Shown in pieces: positions 4,485-53,069 of a stretch of DNA of 64,000 nt. Below the pieces are notes generated by a model, which worked only from the letters and a program-made list of their open reading frames with translations, had not been told where the DNA came from and did no database searches. A program made the translations under genes and the position numbers. Within the stretch, counting starts at the first letter, position 1, and the number at the start of each line of letters is the position of its first letter. This DNA comes from Minisyncoccota bacterium (GTDB lineage Bacteria > Patescibacteriota > Minisyncoccia > Phycocordibacterales > UBA9973), in contig JBAYHR010000003.1 of NCBI GenBank assembly GCA_041666045.1, positions 2,208 to 66,207 on the forward strand. Direction: 5' to 3'.

Positions 4485-5096
4485 ATGTTTAGATTCACAG
4501 TACCAGTCATTTTAATAGGAATTGCCATAGGAGGATTTTTTATGTTTACAAATCCGCTTTATAAAAATATTTCTGTGATTAATGCGCAGGTAACATCTTA
4601 TAATGAAGCGCTTACCAATTCTAAAACGCTTGAAGCAGAACGGGATAAATTAACTCAAAAATATAATGCATTTGATCCAGAAAATTTATCAAAACTTGAA
4701 AAACTTTTACCCGACAATGTTGATAATATTCGTTTAATTCTTGAAATAGAAAAAATAGCGTCGCCTTACGGAATGGTTTTAAAAGATGTTAAATATGACA
4801 CTATGTCTAAAGCGAAAATTGATGTAACTGGCGTTAATTTAAAAAATGCAGTTCAAAACAGTGCTACGGCTCAATCATTAAATAAAGATTATGGAACTTG
4901 GGATTTAGAATTTTCTACGCAAGGCACTTATAATAATTTTATTAATTTTATAAAAGACTTAGAAAGCAATCTTAGAATTGTTGATATATCTTCAATTCAG
5001 TTTGATTCAAATGTTAATATAGGAGCGAATGCGAATATTTCTTCTGGAGTATATAAATATGGATTTAAAATTAAAACTTATTGGTTAAAAAATTAA
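4485..5096 (+). CDS. pilO: PilO-like pilus assembly protein
   Basis: N-terminal TM followed by a coiled coil. Position between the pilN-like gene and pilB. Confidence 0.55.
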   Translation: MFRFTVPVILIGIAIGGFFMFTNPLYKNISVINAQVTSYNEALTNSKTLEAERDKLTQKYNAFDPENLSKLEKLLPDNVDNIRLILEIEKIASPYGMVLKDVKYDTMSKAKIDVTGVNLKNAVQNSATAQSLNKDYGTWDLEFSTQGTYNNFINFIKDLESNLRIVDISSIQFDSNVNIGANANISSGVYKYGFKIKTYWLKN

Positions 5097-5097
5097 A

Positions 5098-5532
5098 ATG
5101 GCTTCTATAATAAAAAACATAATAATTTTCATAGTAATTGCGGCAGCTCTAATTCTTGCTTATACTTTTTTCTTTAAAAAATCTCCAGATCAGGCTTCTT
5201 TAGTTTCAACTACTGGCGCAACTGTTTTGCCAACTGCTTCAACTGATCAAAATTCTGAAATAGGAAAAGATTTTCTTTCAGTCCTTTTAAATGTTAAAAA
5301 ACTAAGGTTAGACGATACTATTTTTTCAGATCCAGCATTCAATACCTTGCACGATTCAAGCATTTTACTTATTCCAGATGGGACTGAAGGGAGACCAAAT
5401 CCATTTGCCCCAATAGGATCTGATCTAATCGCTACACCTATAAATTCTTTAAGTACACAAACGCAATCTATAATAGAAAATTTAACAAATCCACAAGGTC
5501 AAACTCCACCTGCAACTGGAATAGTAAATTAA
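5098..5532 (+). CDS. small membrane protein of the pilus operon (PilP-like?)
   Basis: N-terminal TM (IIIFIVIAAALILAYTFFF) and a Pro/Thr-rich C-terminus. Role inferred from operon context only. Confidence 0.35.
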   Translation: MASIIKNIIIFIVIAAALILAYTFFFKKSPDQASLVSTTGATVLPTASTDQNSEIGKDFLSVLLNVKKLRLDDTIFSDPAFNTLHDSSILLIPDGTEGRPNPFAPIGSDLIATPINSLSTQTQSIIENLTNPQGQTPPATGIVN

Positions 5533-5539
5533 ATAAATT

Positions 5540-7288
5540 ATGAGTTTTTTAGAAGAATTAGCAAAAAAGGGGATAATAAACGAGACTCAAATAGGTGAAA
5601 TTAAAAATCGTGCAAAAGAAAAGCATGATGGTAATGTTTATGACGCATTGGCTGAATCTGGGATATCGGAAGATGTAATTTTAGAAATTAAAGGAGAATA
5701 TTTTCAAATACCAACAAAGAAAGTAAATGCAAAAGCTGTATCTTTTGATGTGTTAAAAAATATTCCAGAAGATTCAGCTATTTATTATAATTTTGTTCCA
5801 CTTGATTTAAAAGATGGAGTATTGGAAGTGGGAGTAATAAATCCTGAAAATATTCAAGCAATGGATGCTCTGCAATTTATTTCTGCAAAATTAGGCATTC
5901 CTTTTAAAATTTTCCTTATTTCTAAAAAAGATTATACAGATGTGATGGAAAATTATAAAGGTCTTTCAAGTCAAGTAAGTGAAGCTCTGGATGAATTAAA
6001 TGAAGATGTTGCAGATATAAAAGTTTCAGATGAAGCTCTTAAATTAAGCAAAGATATAAAAGATGTGAAACCTGGAGAAGAAGTAAAAATTATAGAAGAT
6101 GCGCCAGTTATAAAAATTGTTGCTGTTATACTTCGCAATGCCATAGAAGGGAATGCTTCCGACATACATATAGAATTTACAGGAGAGAAAGTAAAAGTTC
6201 GTTATCGTGTGGACGGTTCTTTGCATACCAGTATTGTTTTACCTCCAAATGTTTATAGCGGGGTAGTGGCGCGTATAAAAATTCTTGCAAAATTGCGTTT
6301 AGATGAAAAAAGAAAACCGCAAGACGGATCTTTTAGCGCAAATATTGATGGACGCAAGATAGATTTTCGTGTATCTACGATGCCAGCATATTATGGAGAG
6401 AAAGTTGTAATGCGTATTTTAGATTCTGAAAAAGGAGTAAAACCGTTAGATCAACTTGGTTTGTCAAAAAGAAATCTTGAAATGATTAGAGAATCTATTA
6501 AAAAACCTTATGGATTAATTTTAATTACAGGTCCTACTGGTTCTGGAAAATCTACAACTTTATATTCTATGATGAATGAATTAGATAAAGAAAAAAGCAA
6601 TATTGTGTCATTAGAAGATCCAGTGGAATATCATATGCCAGATATTAATCAATCACAAATGATGCCTGAAATTGGTTATACATTTGCATCAGGACTTCGT
6701 TCAATTCTTCGTCAAGATCCAGATGTAATAATGGTTGGAGAAATTCGTGATAAAGAAACAGCTCAACTTGCTATTCAAGCAGCGCTTACCGGACATCTTG
6801 TTCTTTCAACATTGCACACGAATAATGCTATCGGTGCAGTTCCTCGTCTTGTTGATATGGGAGTTGATCCATATTTAATTGCTCCAACTTTAATTCTTTC
6901 CGTTGCTCAAAGATTATCAAGAATGACTTGCGCTTCTTCTAAAAAACTTATACCAATGGATGAAAGTATAAAAATTCAAATTAAAGATCAAATGAAAGAT
7001 TTGCCAGACGAATTTAAGAAAGAAATTGAAATAAAAAGTGAAATGTATGAAACTGTGCCATCTCCAGAATGTCCTTCTGGCACTAGAGGACGTATTGCTG
7101 TTTATGAAATGTTTAAAATAGATAAAGAAATGCAGAATGTAATTTTGAAGAATCCTGTTGATTCTGAAATTTACAAAGCAGCTCGCAATAATGGCATGCT
7201 TCTAATGAGAGAAGATGCAATGTTGAAAGCTGTTGATGGTATTATTCCTTTTACAGAGGTTTATAATTTTGGCAATGAAAATGAATAA
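5540..7288 (+). CDS. pilB: type IV pilus assembly ATPase PilB (GspE family)
   Basis: Walker A GPTGSGKSTT, Asp box, His box (LSTLHTN) and a tetracysteine-like CxxC region. N-terminal GspII_E-like domain. Confidence 0.9.
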   Translation: MSFLEELAKKGIINETQIGEIKNRAKEKHDGNVYDALAESGISEDVILEIKGEYFQIPTKKVNAKAVSFDVLKNIPEDSAIYYNFVPLDLKDGVLEVGVINPENIQAMDALQFISAKLGIPFKIFLISKKDYTDVMENYKGLSSQVSEALDELNEDVADIKVSDEALKLSKDIKDVKPGEEVKIIEDAPVIKIVAVILRNAIEGNASDIHIEFTGEKVKVRYRVDGSLHTSIVLPPNVYSGVVARIKILAKLRLDEKRKPQDGSFSANIDGRKIDFRVSTMPAYYGEKVVMRILDSEKGVKPLDQLGLSKRNLEMIRESIKKPYGLILITGPTGSGKSTTLYSMMNELDKEKSNIVSLEDPVEYHMPDINQSQMMPEIGYTFASGLRSILRQDPDVIMVGEIRDKETAQLAIQAALTGHLVLSTLHTNNAIGAVPRLVDMGVDPYLIAPTLILSVAQRLSRMTCASSKKLIPMDESIKIQIKDQMKDLPDEFKKEIEIKSEMYETVPSPECPSGTRGRIAVYEMFKIDKEMQNVILKNPVDSEIYKAARNNGMLLMREDAMLKAVDGIIPFTEVYNFGNENE

Positions 7289-14520: not shown

Positions 14521-16671
<2,151 letters not shown>

Positions 16672-16717
16672 TAGCTTGCGTCCATCTATCTGAGAGCTTA
16701 TAATTAAAATCCACTTG

Positions 16718-16784
16718 TCCCGTTAGAAAATCATCGGGGTAGTGGTTTGTCGGTAAAGATTATAAATTAAATTTTCTAATGGGA
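16718..16784 (+). repeat. intergenic copy of the CCCGTTAGAAA inverted-repeat element, with the right arm ending in the ATG of the downstream gene
   Basis: Left arm TCCCGTTAGAAAATC. Right arm ATTTTCTAATGGGA, one mismatch. Separated by about 38 nt. Confidence 0.7.
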
Positions 16785-17311
16785 TGAAAGATAAATTAAA
16801 AATTTTAACAGTTTTTGTTGGGTGTTTTTTGTTTAGATTGATACCCTTACGAGCACCTAACGTTGAACCTATTATGGCTTCAATAATGCCTTTAGGGCGT
16901 AAATATGGAGCTTTAATGGCATTTCTATTTGGCTTTCTAAGTATGTTTTTATATGATGCTGTGACGCATTTTGGATCTTGGACTTGGGAAGGAGCTATTA
17001 CTTATGGAGTTATAGGAGCTGTCTCCACTTTCTATTTTAATAAGTTTAAAGCATCTGCTTTTAACTTTGCAGTATTTGCATTTTTTGCAACAATTTCTTT
17101 TGATTTAATAACAGGAGTTTTATTTGCTCCGATGTTTGGGCAAACTATTTTAAACGCTTTAATTTTACAAATTCCTTTTACAGCGCTTCATTTGGCAGGG
17201 AATATAGGTTTTTCTTTAACTTTGAGTCCTTTGATAAACAAATGGCTTGTGTCAGAAAAATTTTTTGCACTTAAAAAATCAGCAGTAATTTCTGATTTAG
17301 TTAAAATATAG
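16784..17311 (+). CDS. polytopic membrane protein (possible ECF-transporter S-component-like)
   Basis: About five TM helices and no soluble domain. Family assignment is tentative. Confidence 0.45.
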   Translation: MKDKLKILTVFVGCFLFRLIPLRAPNVEPIMASIMPLGRKYGALMAFLFGFLSMFLYDAVTHFGSWTWEGAITYGVIGAVSTFYFNKFKASAFNFAVFAFFATISFDLITGVLFAPMFGQTILNALILQIPFTALHLAGNIGFSLTLSPLINKWLVSEKFFALKKSAVISDLVKI

Positions 17312-17318
17312 CTTGCGG
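17286..17318 (+). repeat. 33-bp direct repeat, copy 1 (3' end of the membrane-protein gene)
   Basis: TAATTTCTGATTTAGTTAAAATATAGCTTGCGG. Confidence 0.85.
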
Positions 17319-17383
17319 TATCTTGGTGTTAAGTACTCAAAGGCACCCCTTTTCATAAGGGCATTTAGTACATTTTGGTAAAT

Positions 17384-17411
17384 TTGCTTTTTTATATAGA
17401 TATGATATAAT
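17384..17411 (+). promoter_or_regulatory. sigma70-like promoter of the GC-rich cassette gene
   Basis: TTGCTT, 16-nt spacer, TGATATAAT. Confidence 0.55.
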
Positions 17412-17463
17412 GCGTTTAGCTAGAAAAGTTCTAGTTCTTTTAAATAATTTAAAAATAAATAAG

Positions 17464-18366
17464 ATGATGACGACAAAATTGATCACGTCGAAAGATCCGA
17501 AAGGATTGCATGCTGTAAGCTTATTTGAATCTGCTTACAACAAACTTGGTCTGACTGATGAACAGGCACAAATGCTTAATGAAAAAGGTGGTGAATTCAA
17601 AGAGAAAATACAAAAAATTATCCGCGAATTGACTGTTAAAAACCAGTATGCCAATGAAGTAATAAATTCAAACTACACCTATCCAAAGGAATACAAAGGT
17701 CCTAAATTAATCATTGAACAAGTAAAAACCATTGCTGAATTATTTGGACTTGATCCGAAAGAAGCACTGGAATTTATAAAAACTTTACCTGCAATACCTG
17801 ATGGCACAGAGGGATGGTTGGCTGTTCCAAAAGTATCAGCTGTAGCTAAGAAACATTTCCCTGCAATTACAGATCCAGCCATGCAGTATTGTGAAGCAGT
17901 AAAAATGGTACATGCAAAATTAGCTAAAAGCCGTAGATTTACAAACTATCGTGATGGAGAAATTGTTCCAAATAAACTTCGCCAAAGTGCTCGCACTTTG
18001 GATTTTTTAGAACAATTTATCGAAGCAAAACAACCGGGTGATATTATAATCATTGCCGTTCAATATGGAATGAGACATCGCGGTGAATCTGTTCGCAGGG
18101 CAAGAGAAATATTTTCCTTTAATGAATTTGGCTTAGGTGCATTTGCAATCGGTTGTATGGCTTTGGTTCATCCTGAACGTTATGTAAGATGGGAAGAATT
18201 AGACACAGACTGCGCTGGTGATGAATTTTCTCCGGGCGGTGATGGGGTCTTCTCGAAGGCTCCGGTCTTCTGCTTCGACGACGGCGAGCTGCGGTTTTTC
18301 ACGCACGATGTTTCGGTTGCTAGCGTCGGCTATGGTTCGGCTTCCGGTTTTGTTCCGCAGGGTTGA
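17464..18366 (+). CDS. hypothetical protein on a GC-rich cassette
   Basis: Own extended -10 promoter and own terminator. The last ~135 nt is about 60% GC, against a genome of about 30%. No recognisable domain. The ORF-track start at 17410 overlaps the -10 box, so the ATGATG at 17464 is preferred. Confidence 0.5.
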   Translation: MMTTKLITSKDPKGLHAVSLFESAYNKLGLTDEQAQMLNEKGGEFKEKIQKIIRELTVKNQYANEVINSNYTYPKEYKGPKLIIEQVKTIAELFGLDPKEALEFIKTLPAIPDGTEGWLAVPKVSAVAKKHFPAITDPAMQYCEAVKMVHAKLAKSRRFTNYRDGEIVPNKLRQSARTLDFLEQFIEAKQPGDIIIIAVQYGMRHRGESVRRAREIFSFNEFGLGAFAIGCMALVHPERYVRWEELDTDCAGDEFSPGGDGVFSKAPVFCFDDGELRFFTHDVSVASVGYGSASGFVPQG

Positions 18367-18435
18367 TTTTCTCATCTTGAATTCTTTAATCTTTTGAATT
18401 CTTTATTTTGATTCTTGAATTCGAAAATTTTTTTA

Positions 18436-18476
18436 AAGGGGTTATCCACAATTGGATAACCCTCTTTTTATTTTCA
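18436..18476 (+). terminator. terminator of the GC-rich cassette gene
   Basis: AGGGGTTATCCACAATTGGATAACCCCT followed by CTTTTTATTTT. Confidence 0.75.
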
Positions 18477-18518
18477 TATTTGGTTTTTGCAAGAACCGTT
18501 CTTGCGAGACTTCATCAA

Positions 18519-18551
18519 TAATTTCTGATTTAGTTAAAATATAGCTCGCGG
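18519..18551 (+). repeat. 33-bp direct repeat, copy 2 (abuts the 3' end of tRNA-Ser)
   Basis: TAATTTCTGATTTAGTTAAAATATAGCTCGCGG, 1 mismatch to copy 1. The last 3 nt overlap the tRNA discriminator and acceptor end. Confidence 0.85.
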
Positions 18552-18635
18552 AGGGTGGGAGATTCGAACTCCCGATGCCCTTACAGGCATACAGACTTTC
18601 CAGGTCTGCGCACTAGACCGCTATGCGAACCCTCC
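18549..18635 (-). tRNA. tRNA-Ser (anticodon GGA)
   Basis: Hand-folded as an 87-nt class II tRNA. It has a 7-bp acceptor stem GGAGGGT/ACCCTCC, anticodon loop CUGGAAA, a long variable arm, T-loop GTTCGAATC, discriminator G, and no encoded CCA. Confidence 0.8.
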
Positions 18636-18695
18636 ATATCCTTTAATCTACATTATTTTATAGAAAAAGAAAATGTGGTAATATATAAGTTATAT

Positions 18696-19148
18696 ATGAA
18701 AAAAATAATAACAAGATGTAGAGAAAAAACAACAGCTTATTTAAGTCACAGACCAAAGTTTTATGCGTTAATGGTTGGCATAGGTATCGTTTTATTTTGG
18801 AGAGGAGTATGGCATAGTACTGATTTTGTCCATACTTATTTTAATGTTTATCAAAACAATTTAACTGTTAGCGGATCTTTTTCACCTTGGTGGGACGGAC
18901 CTCTTTCTTTAGTAGTTGGTATTATTATTTTATATTTTACTGGTGCTTTTATTTCTAGTTTTATAGGAAATGAATTAATTCTTTTGGGTCTTCGTGGAGA
19001 AAAGAAACTTAGTCAAAAGACGGAAGGTGAAGTTAGGACTGAAATAGATTCTATTTTAGATATTAAGAATAATCTTAGCGATATAAATGAAAAGATTAGA
19101 GAACTAGAAGAGAAGTTAAAAAACAAAGAAGTTAATAAAAAGAGTTAG
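18696..19148 (+). CDS. membrane protein with C-terminal coiled coil
   Basis: The ORF-track N-terminus (18555-18695) overlaps the tRNA and is discarded. The Met at 18696 is followed by two TM helices and a K/E coiled coil. Confidence 0.5.
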   Translation: MKKIITRCREKTTAYLSHRPKFYALMVGIGIVLFWRGVWHSTDFVHTYFNVYQNNLTVSGSFSPWWDGPLSLVVGIIILYFTGAFISSFIGNELILLGLRGEKKLSQKTEGEVRTEIDSILDIKNNLSDINEKIRELEEKLKNKEVNKKS

Positions 19149-26957: not shown

Positions 26958-26994
26958 TTATTTTTTATTTTCTACTAGGTCTTTAATTTTTGCG
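26958..26994 (+). repeat. 37-bp direct repeat, copy 1 (orphan duplicate of the thrS 3' end)
   Basis: TTATTTTTTATTTTCTACTAGGTCTTTAATTTTTGCG, reverse-complement coding AKIKDLVENKK*. Confidence 0.85.
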
Positions 26995-27006
26995 TTTGAT
27001 TTATGA

Positions 27007-27027
27007 GTTAACCTATGTTAACCTATA
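27007..27027 (+). promoter_or_regulatory. tandem GTTAACCTAT repeats (putative operator) immediately upstream of the HTH gene
   Basis: Two exact 10-mers separated by 1 nt, each containing the palindrome GTTAAC. They end 3 nt before the ATG at 27031. Confidence 0.45.
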
Positions 27028-27030
27028 TAT

Positions 27031-27315
27031 ATGCCTAAAAATAAAGATATTTTAGAAAAAAGAGATAAAAATTATTATTCTGCACCAGAGATAGCCAAAC
27101 TCCTTGGTGTTTCTAGGGTGGCAATTTTTAAGAAAATTAAATCTGGTCAAATACATGCAGAAAAAATTGGTAGAAACTACATTATTCCAAAAGAAGAATA
27201 TGCTGCTATTTTAGGTCTTGTTATACCAGAACGTAGAAAAAGGGATATAGAAAATGCGGTTGAAAGAGTTGTAAAAAAATATGGTCCTGCGCTTCGCAAG
27301 CTTGGGGAAGAATAA
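27031..27315 (+). CDS. excisionase-family HTH (HTH_17) DNA-binding protein; putative antitoxin/Xis of the islet
   Basis: SAPEIAKLLGVSRVAIFKKIKSGQIHAEKIGRNYIIPKEEY matches the excisionase-type HTH. Followed 3 nt later by a Doc toxin gene. Confidence 0.7.
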   Translation: MPKNKDILEKRDKNYYSAPEIAKLLGVSRVAIFKKIKSGQIHAEKIGRNYIIPKEEYAAILGLVIPERRKRDIENAVERVVKKYGPALRKLGEE

Positions 27316-27318
27316 TAT

Positions 27319-27762
27319 ATGGCACGTCAAGTAATAAAACGTATTAATTTGGCAGATGTGGAATATGTTGCTTTTAAGCTTGCTCAAAAATTTATGGAAT
27401 GGAATGAACCTATTCCAGATTTTAAAACACGTTTTCCTTATAAATTAGAAAGTTGTATTGAAACACCATTCCAGACTTTTGAAAGAAAAAGTTTATATAA
27501 AGGTTTAGTAGAAAAATCATCAATACTTTTTTATTTGATGGTAAAAAATCATCCATTTCAAAATGGGAATAAAAGGATTGCAATTACAACATTGATTTTC
27601 TTTTTAATACAAAATAGTAAGTGGCTTTCTGTATCGGATCAAAGTATTTATGAATTCGCGCGTGAAGTTGCAGAAAGTAAACCTGAAAATAGAGATGAAC
27701 AAATGCTTTCTATTCGTTCTTTTATTGAAAATAATATTGAAGATTATGATCCAAGTAAATAA
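27319..27762 (+). CDS. doc: Doc-family toxin (Fic/Doc fold)
   Basis: HPFQNGNKR matches the Doc-specific variant of the Fic motif, HxFx(D/N)GNKR. Confidence 0.75.
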   Translation: MARQVIKRINLADVEYVAFKLAQKFMEWNEPIPDFKTRFPYKLESCIETPFQTFERKSLYKGLVEKSSILFYLMVKNHPFQNGNKRIAITTLIFFLIQNSKWLSVSDQSIYEFAREVAESKPENRDEQMLSIRSFIENNIEDYDPSK

Positions 27763-27764
27763 TC

Positions 27765-28385
27765 TTAAAAAAGTTTAGTTTGTTCAACAGGAGAATTTTC
27801 TTTTTCTTTGTTTTCTATTTCTTTTAAAAATTTTGGGATTTTTGCGAAATCTTTTTGAAGAGTTTCGCGCATTCCGCCGTTATATAGCGCAGCGGCTGGA
27901 TGATAAAGTGGAAGAAAATATTTTGTTTCTATTTTGTTGAATTTTTTAATTAAAAGTTTTCCATGGATTGCGGAAATTTTTTCAAGAGGAAAAAAGTCAT
28001 TCATTGAGTGACGTCCGAGGAAAACTATTAACTTTGGCTTTATAAAATTAAGTTCTTCTAAAAGCCAATCTCGGCAGGCGTCTTTTTCTTCTGGAAGTGG
28101 ATCGCGATTGTTGGGCGGACGATATTTTACAATATTAGTTATATAAATTTCTTCACGTTTTAACTTTATGCTTTCTAACATTTCAGCTAGGAATTTTCCT
28201 GCAGCGCCAACGAAAGGCACTCCTTGTTCATCTTCACTTTTTCCTGGTGCTTCGCCAATAAAGACGATTTCTGATTCAGGATTTCCGTTTCCTGGGACAG
28301 GTTGAGTCGCTGTCTTTTTTAATTCACACTTGCATTCTAAAAACCACTTTTTGTGAATTTTCTTTAATTCTTCATTTTTATCCAT
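27765..28385 (-). CDS. uracil-DNA glycosylase, family 4
   Basis: Motif A GEAPG and motif B HPAAAL, with N-terminal Cys residues. Typical size of 206 aa. Confidence 0.8.
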   Translation of the reverse strand: MDKNEELKKIHKKWFLECKCELKKTATQPVPGNGNPESEIVFIGEAPGKSEDEQGVPFVGAAGKFLAEMLESIKLKREEIYITNIVKYRPPNNRDPLPEEKDACRDWLLEELNFIKPKLIVFLGRHSMNDFFPLEKISAIHGKLLIKKFNKIETKYFLPLYHPAAALYNGGMRETLQKDFAKIPKFLKEIENKEKENSPVEQTKLF

Positions 28386-28441
28386 AATTAGAATTATTTT
28401 TCTCCTTTTAGAATTATTTTCTTTTCAAATCCGCCTTTTTC

Positions 28442-28696
28442 TTATAGTTTTTTACTTTTAACTTCTTCCACATTAGCGAATTCCGACAATTTTTTAATCG
28501 CTTCGATAACTTCTAAAATATCTGCTAATTCTTCAACATTTTTTAATTCAAGAAATTCTTTTGTTTCTTCGTCAAGTTTTTTAAATAATTCTTCTTTATA
28601 TTCTTCTGGGTTTGCAATCCTCTTTTCATAAGAAATACCTCTAGAATCTAAATGTTCTGGTATTTTATCTCTTACCAATTTATTATAACTTTCCAT
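28442..28696 (-). CDS. MazG-like nucleotide pyrophosphohydrolase (all-alpha NTP-PPase)
   Basis: KLVRDKIPE N-terminus and acidic EExxE helices (EELADILEVIEAI). 84 aa. Confidence 0.5.
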   Translation of the reverse strand: MESYNKLVRDKIPEHLDSRGISYEKRIANPEEYKEELFKKLDEETKEFLELKNVEELADILEVIEAIKKLSEFANVEEVKSKKL

Positions 28697-28700
28697 AGTT

Positions 28701-28737
28701 TTATTTTTTATTTTCTACTAGGTCTTTAATTTTTGCG
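28701..28737 (+). repeat. 37-bp direct repeat, copy 2 (authentic 3' end of thrS)
   Basis: Identical 37-mer forming the last 11 codons plus stop of thrS. Confidence 0.85.
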
Positions 28738-47552: not shown

Positions 47553-50500
47553 ATGAAAACTTTAAATACAACTGAATTTGATAACATTACATTAAGACTT
47601 GCTTCACCTGAGCAAATTAAAGAATGGTCTTATGGGGAAGTTACTAAGCCTGAAACGATAAATTATCGTACAGGCAGATCTGAACGTGGCGGTCTCTTTG
47701 ACGAAAAGATATTCGGTCCAGAAAAAGATTACGAATGTTATTGTGGAAAATATCGCAGGATTCGTTATAAAGATATTATTTGTGAAAAATGCGGAGTTGA
47801 GGTTACTCGTTCTGCTGTAAGACGTGAGAGAATGGGGCATATTGAACTTTCTACACCAGTTTCTCATATTTGGTTTTTGCGTGGGGTGCCATCTAGAATG
47901 AGTATTCTTCTTAATATTTCTGTTTCTGATCTTGAAAAGGTAATTTATTTTGCTGGATATATAATTACTGAAGTTTTTGAAAAAGAAAAAGAAATAATTA
48001 TTCAAAATTTGGATAAAGAATATAAAGTTAAATTAAAAAATTCTGCAGATGATGACACTCGTGAAAAATTAAAAACATTACTTTCTATTACGAAAAAAGA
48101 GATTGGGGAAATTTATGAAGGAAAAGTTTTAAATGAAATTTCATTTCACCATTATTCCTTAAAATATGGTACATGCTTTGAAGCAAATATTGGCGCTGAA
48201 GCTATTTATTCTATTTTTAAGAATTTAGATTTAAATAAACTTAAAATTCTTACCGAGACGATGATTGAAAAATCTAGTGTTGCAGAAAAAGAAAAATTAC
48301 AAAAAAGACTTTCTCTTATTAGGGCTATGACATATGCCGGTATTCGTCCAGAATGGATGTTTCTTACTATTATTCCAGTTATTCCACCAGTTCTTCGTCC
48401 AATGGTTGCGCTTGATGGAGGACGTCATGCTACAAGCGATTTAAATGATCTTTACAGACGCGTGATAAACAGAAATAATCGTTTGAAGAAATTGAAAGAA
48501 ATAAATGCTCCAGATGTAATTTTAAGAAATGAAAAAAGAATCATTCAAGAAGCAGTAGATGCTTTAATTGATAACTCTATAGCAAAACAAAATGATTCTG
48601 CTGCTATGAGTCAATCTCAAAAGCGTCCATTGAAATCATTGTCTGACAATTTGAAATCGAAGCAAGGTCTTTTCCGTCAAAACTTGCTTGGTAAGCGTGT
48701 AGATTATTCTGGACGTTCCGTTATTGTTGTTGGTCCTCAGCTTAAATTAAATCAGTGTGGTTTGCCAAAACATATGGCTCTTGAGCTTTTCAAACCTTTC
48801 GTAATTTCAAAAATCTTACAAGCAGAATTAGCATTCAATATTCGTGGAGCTAATAAATTAATAGAAGAGAGAACACCAGAAGTTTGGGCAATGCTTGAAG
48901 AAGTGATACAAGGTAAATATGTTCTTTTAAACCGCGCTCCAACTTTGCACCGTTTGGGTATTCAAGCTTTCAATCCTATTCTTATTGAGGGTAATGCTGT
49001 TCAAGTGCATCCCCTTGTTTGTCAGGCTTTTAATGCGGACTTCGATGGAGACCAGATGGCTGTTTATCTTCCTCTTTCAGAAGAAGCGCAAAATGAAGCA
49101 AAAGAATTAATGGCTGCAAATAAGAACTTACTTAAACCTCAAAATGGAGATCCAATAGTTCATCCAAGTAAGGATATGGTTTTAGGTTCTTATTGGATGA
49201 CAAAATCTGTTGATGGAGAACCTGGAGAAGGAAAGTATTTTTCAAGTCCAAATGTGGCTATTACTGCATATAAATTTGGGGTTGTTTCTCTTAGAGCAAA
49301 AATTAAAGTAATGGCTACTGATACTATTAAGTATAAAAAATTTAATGGTGAAATTTTTGAAACATCTGTTGGAAAACTTTTATTCAATAGTATTTTGCCA
49401 AAAGATTTTGCTTATGTTACAGAGGAAATGACTCAAAAGAGATTGTCTTCGCTTGTTGATGAACTTATTATGTTTTATGGTGTTGATAAGACTCCACCAA
49501 TATTGGATAAAATTAAAGAATTTGGTTTTAAATATTCAACAGTTTCTGGTACGACTTGGGGATTAGACAATGTTAAAGTTCCAGTAGAAAAACCAAAAAT
49601 AATAGCTGACAGTAAAAAACTTGAAGATGAAGTTATTTCTCAATGGAGCGATGGTCTTTTGTCTTTAGATGAAAGATATCAAAAGATTATTGAAATCTGG
49701 ACTCAAGCTAAAAAGAATTTAGAAAAAGTTTTACCGAATACTCTTGATAAAAATGGTTCAACTTATGATTTGTTTACTTCTGGAGCTCGTGGAACTATGA
49801 CAAGTTTAGTTCAGATGACAGGTATGAAAGGACTTATCCAAAACAATCAAGGAAAGACATTGGAATTTCCTATTATTCCTTGTTATCACGAAGGACTTTC
49901 TCCAATTCAATATTTCGTTACTACTCACGGTGCTCGTAAGGGTGCTTCAGACACAGCTTTAAATACCGCTAAAGCTGGATATCTAACTCGTAGATTAGTT
50001 GATGTTGCGCAAGATGTTGTAATAACAGAAGAAGATTGTGGTACAAAAGAAGGTAAAATAGTAAAACGAGAAAATATTTCTGGAATTGAAATTCCACTTT
50101 CAAAAAATATTCGTGGACGTGTTTTAGCAACTGATCTTAAAGATAAAAATGGAAATGTGGCTTATAAAAAAGGATTTTTAATTACTAAAGAAGAAGCATA
50201 TAATATTGAAGGAGCAGGATTTACTGAAGTATTCGTTCGTTCTCCTTTAACTTGTCGCACTACTCATGGTATTTGTCAGATGTGTTACGGATTGGATTTG
50301 GGAAGAAATCATTTAGTTGATTTGGGAGAAGCTGTAGGCATAATCGCAGCGCAAGCTATCGGTGAACCAGGCACACAGCTTACACTTCGTACATTTCATG
50401 CTGGAGGAGTCGCAGGTACTGACATCACTACAGGTCTTCCACGTATTGAAGAAATTTTTGAAAGAAGAATTCCAAAGAATCCGGCAGTTGTTTCTCAAAC

Positions 50501-52948: not shown

Positions 52949-53069
52949 ATCCCGTTAGAAATCAAAAAGTTAAGTAATTTTTCACGGGATAAATAATTAT
53001 GGAGTATATAAAAGTCATTATTAATAAATTAACTACGGAGATCTAAAGATTTCCTATTTCTAACGGGAT
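52949..53069 (+). repeat. intergenic copy of the CCCGTTAGAAAT inverted-repeat element, with the right arm overlapping the rpoD start codon
   Basis: Perfect 14-bp arms ATCCCGTTAGAAAT / ATTTCTAACGGGAT, 93 nt apart. A partial extra right-arm copy (TCACGGGAT) lies inside. Confidence 0.75.

Follow-up and report, generated by a model that had tools for sequence, protein, structure and literature searches.

How did a single gene with a sharply G+C-rich end, bracketed by a direct repeat, come to lie between a membrane-protein gene and tRNA-Ser(GGA) in the genome of a Minisyncoccota bacterium, and what does this gene encode? The locus belongs to a 64,000-nt stretch of DNA, here called the window (115016-51017 of a 116,444-bp contig, with 1.4 kb remaining upstream), for which an original prediction, made from the letters alone, had proposed site-specific integration of a cassette beside a tRNA gene, with duplication of the target gene's end. 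The unit between the repeats measures 1.2 kb, has one gene, and is located between a gene for an energy-coupling factor transporter S-component-like protein (ECF-S) and tRNA-Ser(GGA). As described below, this gene almost certainly encodes a variable protein, the kind of target served by the cellular diversity-generating retroelements (DGRs) found in Patescibacteria, and the overall best explanation, which we hold to be probable, is that the target unit was inserted at the ECF-S/tRNA-Ser junction by Campbell-type recombination. DGR targets and integrase-less att-flanked islets are both known in kind, and no new system is required; what is new is the combination of both in one well-delimited example, together with a very dynamic surrounding junction.

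The gene of the cassette (17464..18366, + strand; 300 aa, conserved start MMTTK) has no match in PHROGs or Pfam, and its identity was established through its relatives. There are 1648 homologues, at 59-72% identity, all of them in Patescibacteria (Paceibacteria, Nomurabacteria, Vogelbacteria). Full-length identity reaches 69-71% for three proteins (P0012, P0004 and P0097; alignment A1), whose loci (L001, L002 and L015) each contain a 131-nt pair of variable region (VR) and template repeat (TR), ∼500 nt apart. The differences between VR and TR fall almost entirely on TR adenines, which account for 15/17 mismatches in L001, 19/20 in L002, and 19/19 in L015, a pattern that defines DGRs. L015 is a complete DGR, comprising the homologue, a 131-nt repeat of the homologue's own 3' end, bAvd (PF22296), and a reverse transcriptase (RT; RVT_1), and L001 retains TR and bAvd, with ...NFNDDKLKFDTNDVSNANDNYG in the template and ...YFDGGGLRFDTDDVSSVHDDFG in the protein. 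Because the homologues' loci show adenine-biased VR/TR pairs, bAvd and RT, we assign the cassette gene to the DGR targets with high confidence. By its full-length identity to proteins with a cognate TR, bAvd and RT it resembles the targets of DGR clade 2, a cellular clade restricted to Patescibacteria with target proteins in which no domain can be recognised (Roux et al., 2021; PMC8144416). As in other Patescibacteria DGR targets, the protein has no recognisable domain and ends in an adenine-depleted VR (final CCGCAG), and a conserved hairpin follows. Cellular DGR targets of Patescibacteria, or the candidate phyla radiation (CPR), are reportedly also the subject of work by Paul and colleagues from 2017. 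A phage origin of the cassette was considered and set aside, since neither the 300-aa protein nor the 23-nt core of the flanking repeat matched IMG/VR viral contigs.

The composition of the gene fits this identity. The VR (18230..18360, + strand) ends in the family's fixed ...CCGCAG and contains 9% A, compared with 35.5% A elsewhere in the gene; the VRs of L001, L002 and L015 contain 8-12% A, and their TRs 23-24%. The last 131 nt of the open reading frame (ORF) are 60.3% G+C, compared with 37.1% in the rest of the ORF and 30.9% in the window. The original prediction was thus right to describe a 300-aa ORF whose last ∼135 nt are ∼60% G+C. This tail gives no indication of foreign composition; it is the VR of a DGR target, and is G+C-rich because adenine-specific mutagenesis leaves the VR adenine-poor. 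Adenine-specific divergence was evaluated against the TRs of the three relatives (L001, L002 and L015), not against a TR of the window genome. At the 28 positions where all three TRs have A, the window VR has another base at 17, and of 72 invariant non-A positions 64 are unchanged in it (Fisher p ∼1e-4 for the contrast); compared with the relatives' TRs, the window VR differs at 19/31 A positions vs 21/100 non-A positions (p = 8e-5). The C-terminus is hypervariable: in a set of 37 homologues, variation in the final ∼45 residues falls mainly on a recurring set of positions interspersed with invariant ones. In complete DGR loci, such a VR is rewritten by error-prone reverse transcription of the TR, with mutagenesis specific to adenines.

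The target in the window stands alone. A template repeat gave no blastn match (word size 7) in the 64-kb window or in L054, which extends about 8 kb past the window end, and tblastn with the RT and Avd of L015 and the Avd of L001 gave no match with E < 1 in the same sequences. Unlike complete DGR loci, the window copy is thus without TR, Avd and RT over a span that begins about 19 kb upstream of the cassette gene and reaches 54 kb downstream. The gene is either a distant target, supplied in trans by a DGR at another place in the genome, or an orphan fixed in a single state. Stand-alone homologues are common and also occur at L013, L014, L048 and L051, without TR, Avd or RT within 5-6 kb and with adenine-poor VRs. 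The L048 target keeps a stub of the template promoter after its hairpin, indicating that removal of the TR-avd-RT part is one route to a stand-alone copy. In two other samples the arrangement at the window locus is identical, with 0 mismatches over 2.6-3.8 kb including the VR; the VR is therefore the same in three assemblies and gives no sign of current diversification. Neither polymorphism nor an empty site was found within the species, both other assemblies being 100% identical.

The surroundings of the L048 target, and of its counterparts in L049 and L050, have a structure of their own. In these three loci a direct repeat of ∼205 nt (1-205 and 6032-6236; about 96% identical) brackets a 5.8-kb island with genes for VTT-domain, HTH-SocA/Panacea, HD_4 and other proteins, in which no integrase was called. 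The right edge of the island holds the closest homologue of the window target, together with the TR-promoter stub. All three contigs begin exactly at the ∼205-nt repeat.

The repeat that brackets the cassette was examined by exact-string counting and by alignment with mismatches allowed. The 28-nt string TAATTTCTGATTTAGTTAAAATATAGCT occurs exactly twice in 64 kb (17286-17313 and 18519-18546; expected 0), and with the YGCGG that follows, the copies span 17286-17318 and 18519-18551, as the original prediction had stated. When mismatches are tolerated, each copy lengthens to 40 nt (17279-17318 and 18512-18551), of which 37/40 are identical, and the added DNA, including one repeat copy, is 1,233 bp. 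The copies differ at 17282 (G/T), 17285 (G/A) and 17314 (T/C), all three within the outer 12 nt; the central 28 nt have no differences. The left, attL-like copy (17279..17318, + strand; identical core 17286-17313) consists of the last 33 nt of the ECF-S gene with its stop, plus 7 nt. It contains the final 11 codons with the stop of ORF 16784-17311 (...ISDLVKI*), and so is the genuine end of the upstream gene, as had been claimed. The right, attR-like copy (18512..18551, + strand) abuts tRNA-Ser, again in agreement with the earlier description, with the junction ...KI* CTC|GCGG and an overlap of 3-4 nt with the 3' end of the tRNA gene. The concern that this might be a general intergenic repeat could be dismissed, as the 28-mer is present only at these two places and a search allowing up to 3 mismatches gave no third site in the window. 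Such a bracket, in which 40 nt from the end of a neighbouring gene are duplicated, is absent from the other DGR-target loci examined.

A 10-nt piece of the repeat, ATAGCTTGCG, is also found after the ligA stop (16671) and at 50350-50359 (- strand). Counting one T/C variant, it occurs 4 times in the window vs 0.02 expected. The sequence directly after the ligA stop, TTAAATAATAGCTTGCG (16664-16680), resembles the context of the ECF-S stop, TTAAAATATAGCTTGCG, at 15/17 positions.

The junction at which the cassette lies is preserved in relatives. Its left member is the ECF-S-like membrane-protein gene (16784..17311, + strand; 175 aa), the target of the insertion, identified by synteny and by Pfam PF07155 (E = 3.9e-6, just above the cut-off), with a C-terminus, ...FFALKKSAVISDLVKI*, similar to those of its orthologues. 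Its right member is tRNA-Ser(GGA) (18548..18635, - strand), detected by ARAGORN and by Rfam (RF00005, 53.8 bits), the only Rfam family found in 16400-19000. Directly upstream of the tRNA, here and in relatives, is a conserved sequence (18636..18660, - strand) that reads TAATGTAGATTAA on the tRNA strand and is probably the promoter of the tRNA gene. In ∼35 related loci the gene order is preserved (pilin-like gene, ligA, ECF-S, tRNA-Ser(GGA)), and none of them has a DGR target there. Three states of the junction were seen: a plus-strand tRNA preceded by its TAATGTAGATTAA motif (L003, L005-L007 and L009), a plus-strand tRNA within which the ECF-S ORF terminates (L020, L022, L029 and L030), and a minus-strand tRNA directly adjoining the ECF-S stop (L046, L034, L045 and L027). 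In the window, the right repeat copy with the tRNA, ...KI* CTC|GCGGAGGG, has the abutting minus-strand form, which L046 (...AKI* ctc|GCGGAGG) shows with no insert. Because the right copy matches this empty form and the TAATGTAGATTAA motif is still upstream of the inverted tRNA, we take the ancestral site to be a convergent, abutting ECF-S/tRNA-Ser junction. A second comparison is provided by L020 (92% ECF-S identity), which shares the downstream genes memb150 and PLD with the window and lacks the cassette, and whose homology to the window goes no further than 17276, 2 nt short of the repeat. The synteny comparison suggested with the original prediction thus yielded empty sites, in the abutting junctions of L046, L034 and L045 and in L020, and the cassette is very probably a real insertion relative to the abutting site. 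Insertion and duplication of the gene end, as first proposed, stand; the history is more complex than a single insertion, since the tRNA orientation varies and the junction is a hot spot.

Several observations concern the junction itself. In the window (18548-18660) and in relatives (L003-L011, L020-L046), tRNA-Ser(GGA) is found beside ECF-S in either orientation between the same neighbours, and the two orientations are interspersed with respect to ECF-S identity, which suggests that a ∼110-bp module of tRNA plus promoter was inverted in place repeatedly. In several genomes the ECF-S ORF stops within the tRNA gene (...ALKRRVRIAV*). The junction is also an insertion hot spot, at which ORFs identified by eye include a LAGLIDADG-like ORF (L004, 6511-6973) and a GIY-YIG-like ORF (L008, 6508-6800) that has ahead of it a duplicate of 23-25 nt from the 5' part of the tRNA. 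A scar of the latter kind, with a duplicated tRNA fragment, is present in L031 (∼1054-1103) and L011 (∼6508-6581), and L037 has a 508-aa ORF (4523-6368) with a repeat of only 10 nt shared at its ends, by eye. In L003 (640-1600), the closest species-representative genome, the 3' end of ligA differs from that of the window, and a displaced copy of the window-type end follows ∼50 nt on, and then an insert of ∼1 kb with a minus-strand ORF; this is another gene-end duplication beside an insert.

Between its repeats the cassette is a single transcription unit with a promoter, a 5' untranslated region, the 300-aa gene and a hairpin terminator. The promoter (17384..17411, + strand), read from sequence, consists of TTGCTT (17384-17389) and, at 16-nt spacing, the extended -10 element TGATATAAT (17403-17411). 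A generic promoter scan did not list it; its support comes from homologous cassettes (L001, L002, L013, L015 and L051), which have TTGACA...TGATATAAT or TGATACAAT at the matching position. After the VR, an 11-bp stem followed by a T-run forms an intrinsic terminator (18438..18463, + strand; z = -4.8), and an equivalent hairpin is found at equal distance after the stop in L001, L002, L013, L014, L015 and L048. Just inside the right boundary lies the 17-nt perfect palindrome GCAAGAACCGTTCTTGC (18489..18505, + strand; z = -3.0), which has the form GCAAGAAC-C-GTTCTTGC, with 8-nt arms and one central base, is unique in the window, and is possibly a protein-binding site. Promoter, terminator and palindrome had all been called from the letters alone, and each of these calls was confirmed. 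Homology to the cassette family stops at ∼18489, and the unit common to all copies begins with the -35 box and ends shortly after the hairpin (∼17384-18489).

The DNA between this common unit and the repeats was compared with several candidate sources. The left inner flank (17319..17383, + strand; 65 nt) has no significant similarity to the tRNA or to the DNA downstream of ECF-S in relatives, and no significant fold (z = 0.5). Local alignment of 17319-17390 with both strands of the tRNA gave no tRNA remnant (p = 0.80 and 0.06), and native DNA from downstream of ECF-S was likewise rejected, with p = 0.61 for L021, p = 0.07 for L037 and p > 0.4 for six further relatives (overall range p = 0.07-0.94). 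The right inner flank did not qualify as a homologue of the TR promoter of full DGRs (p = 0.08-0.22), any resemblance being confined to the first ∼20 nt past the hairpin. Alignment of the two cassette ends gave no terminal inverted repeats (p = 0.92), and there is no transposase in the cassette (Pfam) or among the window ORFs (by eye). Most homologues have a conserved, apparently structured 5' leader, ...GATACCCGACCTCTATCTAAA..CGAGGACTTGGGTGTCGGGACCCAGTTCTTT... (L001 88-130, L002 ∼4900-5000, L013 6001-6075), of which the window leader has only the 3' part (AGTTCTTTTAAAT...), with no Rfam match; this conserved leader could be a regulatory RNA.

We propose the following course of events. Before insertion, the ECF-S gene and tRNA-Ser on the minus strand would have formed the abutting, convergent junction, and the incoming cassette DNA would have carried a near-identical copy of the 40-nt sequence made up of the ECF-S end and the tRNA trailer. 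A small circular intermediate may then have integrated in the manner of Campbell, by a crossover within the 28-nt identical core, leaving attL-like and attR-like copies and an intact ECF-S reading frame. The recombinase would not have been encoded by the cassette; it may have been an integrase acting in trans, or host homologous recombination on short homology. The scheme predicts an empty site ...AAAAAATCAGCAG-core-CTCGCGGAGGGTGGG... and a circle junction ...GCGAGACTTCATCAA-core-CTTGCGGTATCTTGG.... A crossover between two similar sites that already existed seems somewhat the better choice over target-site duplication, because the mismatches sit only at the edges of the identical core; by our arithmetic, all three would fall in the outer 12 nt by chance with a probability of ∼(12/40)^3 = 0.03. 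Whether the incoming DNA was a single-gene circle or the remnant of a larger element is about evenly balanced.

A number of points count against this reading. No cognate TR was found for the window VR, so that its DGR status rests on homology and composition, and the predicted structure of the VR region, examined for a C-type-lectin-like fold, has pLDDT < 50. No recombinase is present in the cassette, which has a single ORF and no Pfam domain, or among the window ORFs (by eye, with a Pfam scan of ten unassigned ones), in keeping with what was first noted about integrases. No circular or excised form was observed, the three assemblies all being integrated. Stand-alone copies in L013, L014 and L051 have no flanking repeats of at least 12 nt, indicating that a flanking repeat is not a family-wide property of these cassettes. 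The closest relatives, L020 and L022, carry the tRNA on the other strand, requiring at least one further rearrangement, and the model accounts for neither the 65-nt left inner flank nor the palindrome. Finally, a repeat at a second islet in the window, near thrS (described below), shares no motif with the ECF-S repeat, arguing against one dedicated site-specific enzyme.

A serious rival, which we nevertheless consider unlikely, is that the cassette is a decayed larger element, similar to a cis-mobilizable element (CIME): a full DGR or an integrase-bearing element would have occupied the site, and TR, avd, RT and integrase would later have been deleted. CIMEs by definition have lost their integration genes and kept attL and attR (PMC5704250), the TR-promoter stub of L048 demonstrates that loss of TR-avd-RT happens, and in L048-L050 the target indeed sits at the edge of a 5.8-kb island within bracketing repeats of ∼205 nt. 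However, only 22 nt separate the end of cassette homology (∼18489) from the right repeat, with 65 nt on the left, so that deletion must have trimmed the element almost exactly to the transcription unit, and there are no pseudogene fragments of RT, Avd or integrase.

The distribution of mismatches between the repeat copies bears on a further possibility, improbable in our judgement, in which linear DNA was inserted at nicks staggered by ∼40 nt (by a transposase- or casposase-like enzyme), or during break repair, and the gaps were then filled in. The clean boundaries of the insert, the perfect repeat at the thrS islet, and the duplicated 23-25-nt tRNA fragments around the GIY-YIG insert of L008 and in L031 and L011 would all suit target-site duplication. 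Mismatches clustered at the edges (∼0.03 by chance) fit recombination between diverged sites and not decay of an identical duplication, and neither terminal inverted repeats (p = 0.92) nor a transposase is present. To our knowledge, 37-40 nt also far exceeds the duplications made by known transposases. We regard as very improbable that nothing was inserted at all, the arrangement being ancestral and the repeat a local duplication or a common intergenic repeat. The recurrence of the 10-nt ATAGCTTGCG at the ligA stop (16671) and at 50350 (-) would agree with an ancestral arrangement, but 0 of ∼35 related ECF-S loci have the DGR target gene at the junction, the 28-mer is found only twice in the window at <=3 mismatches and its 23-nt core is absent from viral contigs, and the gene family occurs in unrelated contexts in other genomes; the empty sites contradict such a history.

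The original prediction had also pointed to an islet at thrS with the same pattern, and this was found to be the case. A perfect 37-nt repeat brackets the islet (26958-28737), with a distal copy at 26958..26994 (+ strand) and a proximal copy at 28701..28737 (- strand) that is the last 37 nt of thrS, including the stop. The islet has HTH_17, Fic/DOC and UDG-superfamily genes and, by eye, a small MazG-like ORF (about 28420-28700, minus strand); no integrase was found, and HTH_17 and Fic/DOC are likely to form a toxin-antitoxin pair. Close to the distal end, on the inner side of the repeat, there is a tandem GTTAACCTAT x2 (about 27011-27030). A recognition motif common to the ECF-S and thrS repeats was sought and rejected, the best having a score of 17, which 5/47 other gene ends equal or exceed. 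With no shared motif above the background of gene ends, a single sequence-specific recombinase is not indicated; different enzymes, or a homology-driven process, are more likely at the two islets, and the idea that one trans-acting mechanism served both the cassette and the thrS islet is doubtful.

Known classes of mobile unit resemble the cassette in part. CIMEs and other decayed islands likewise have bracketing direct repeats, one copy of which restores the 3' end of the target, an adjacent tRNA gene, no integration genes inside, and empty sites in relatives (Guedon et al., 2017; PMC5704250). In contrast to these, the cassette is only 1.2 kb with one gene, duplicates the end of a protein gene and only 3-4 nt of the tRNA, has no known cognate integrase-bearing element, and resides in a Patescibacterium; a limited literature search found no paper describing integrase-less att-flanked elements in Patescibacteria. 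With integron cassettes it has in common a single-gene unit, a presumed small circle, and recombination without a recombinase of its own; unlike them it has its own promoter, and no attC-like site, attI or IntI was seen. The 40-nt duplication of host sequence is a further difference, as integron cassettes are not known to leave one. Integrative mobile elements exploiting Xer (IMEX; XerC/D at dif) share the lack of an integrase and the flanking direct repeats of ∼28 bp, but the 28-nt core here is not dif-like. Low self-complementarity (8/28 positions in the core, 2/37 in the thrS repeat) ruled out dif-like repeats, and the window has two different repeats 10 kb apart. A chromosome has one dif. 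Transposons and insertion sequences differ from the cassette in having terminal inverted repeats and a transposase.

Other repeats in the window were noted. Palindromic elements with the termini CCCGTTAGAAA...TTTCTAACGGG are found at 14857-14904, 16719-16783 and 52951-53067, as three pairs, with 7 hits vs 0.7 expected. The first of these adds 48 nt to the ligA coding sequence without shifting its frame, and the elements resemble repetitive extragenic palindromic (REP) or Rickettsia-palindromic-element-like repeats that invade genes in frame. In L027, a half-site, cccgttagaaaa, is located between ECF-S stop and tRNA. Elsewhere in ligA, a second stretch rich in G+C (15282-15360), with 21-nt inverted arms that are 86% complementary, looks like another palindromic in-frame insert.

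At its broadest, the comparison of the two islets raises the idea, which we think improbable, that Patescibacteria have a general mechanism that captures small promoter-bearing units into the last 35-40 nt of housekeeping genes, with duplication of that segment. If true, capture would need neither a dedicated integrase nor a recognition sequence, DGR targets would spread as independent cassettes, separate from the reverse transcriptase, and the captured units would include the DGR target here, the toxin-antitoxin/UDG/MazG-like set at thrS, and the homing-endonuclease ORFs by the tRNA-Ser of relatives. Apart from that idea, the locus documents, with empty sites, a DGR target alone as a repeat-bracketed 1.2-kb insert, tens of kb from any RT. 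Where a gene of an A+T-rich genome turns abruptly G+C-rich and adenine-poor at its 3' end, the cause can be a DGR VR rather than foreign DNA, and the ECF-S/tRNA-Ser junction could serve as a natural marker of gene flow in this uncultivated lineage. The finding bears on how DGR targets spread and on how frequent 'orphan' variable regions are in Patescibacteria.

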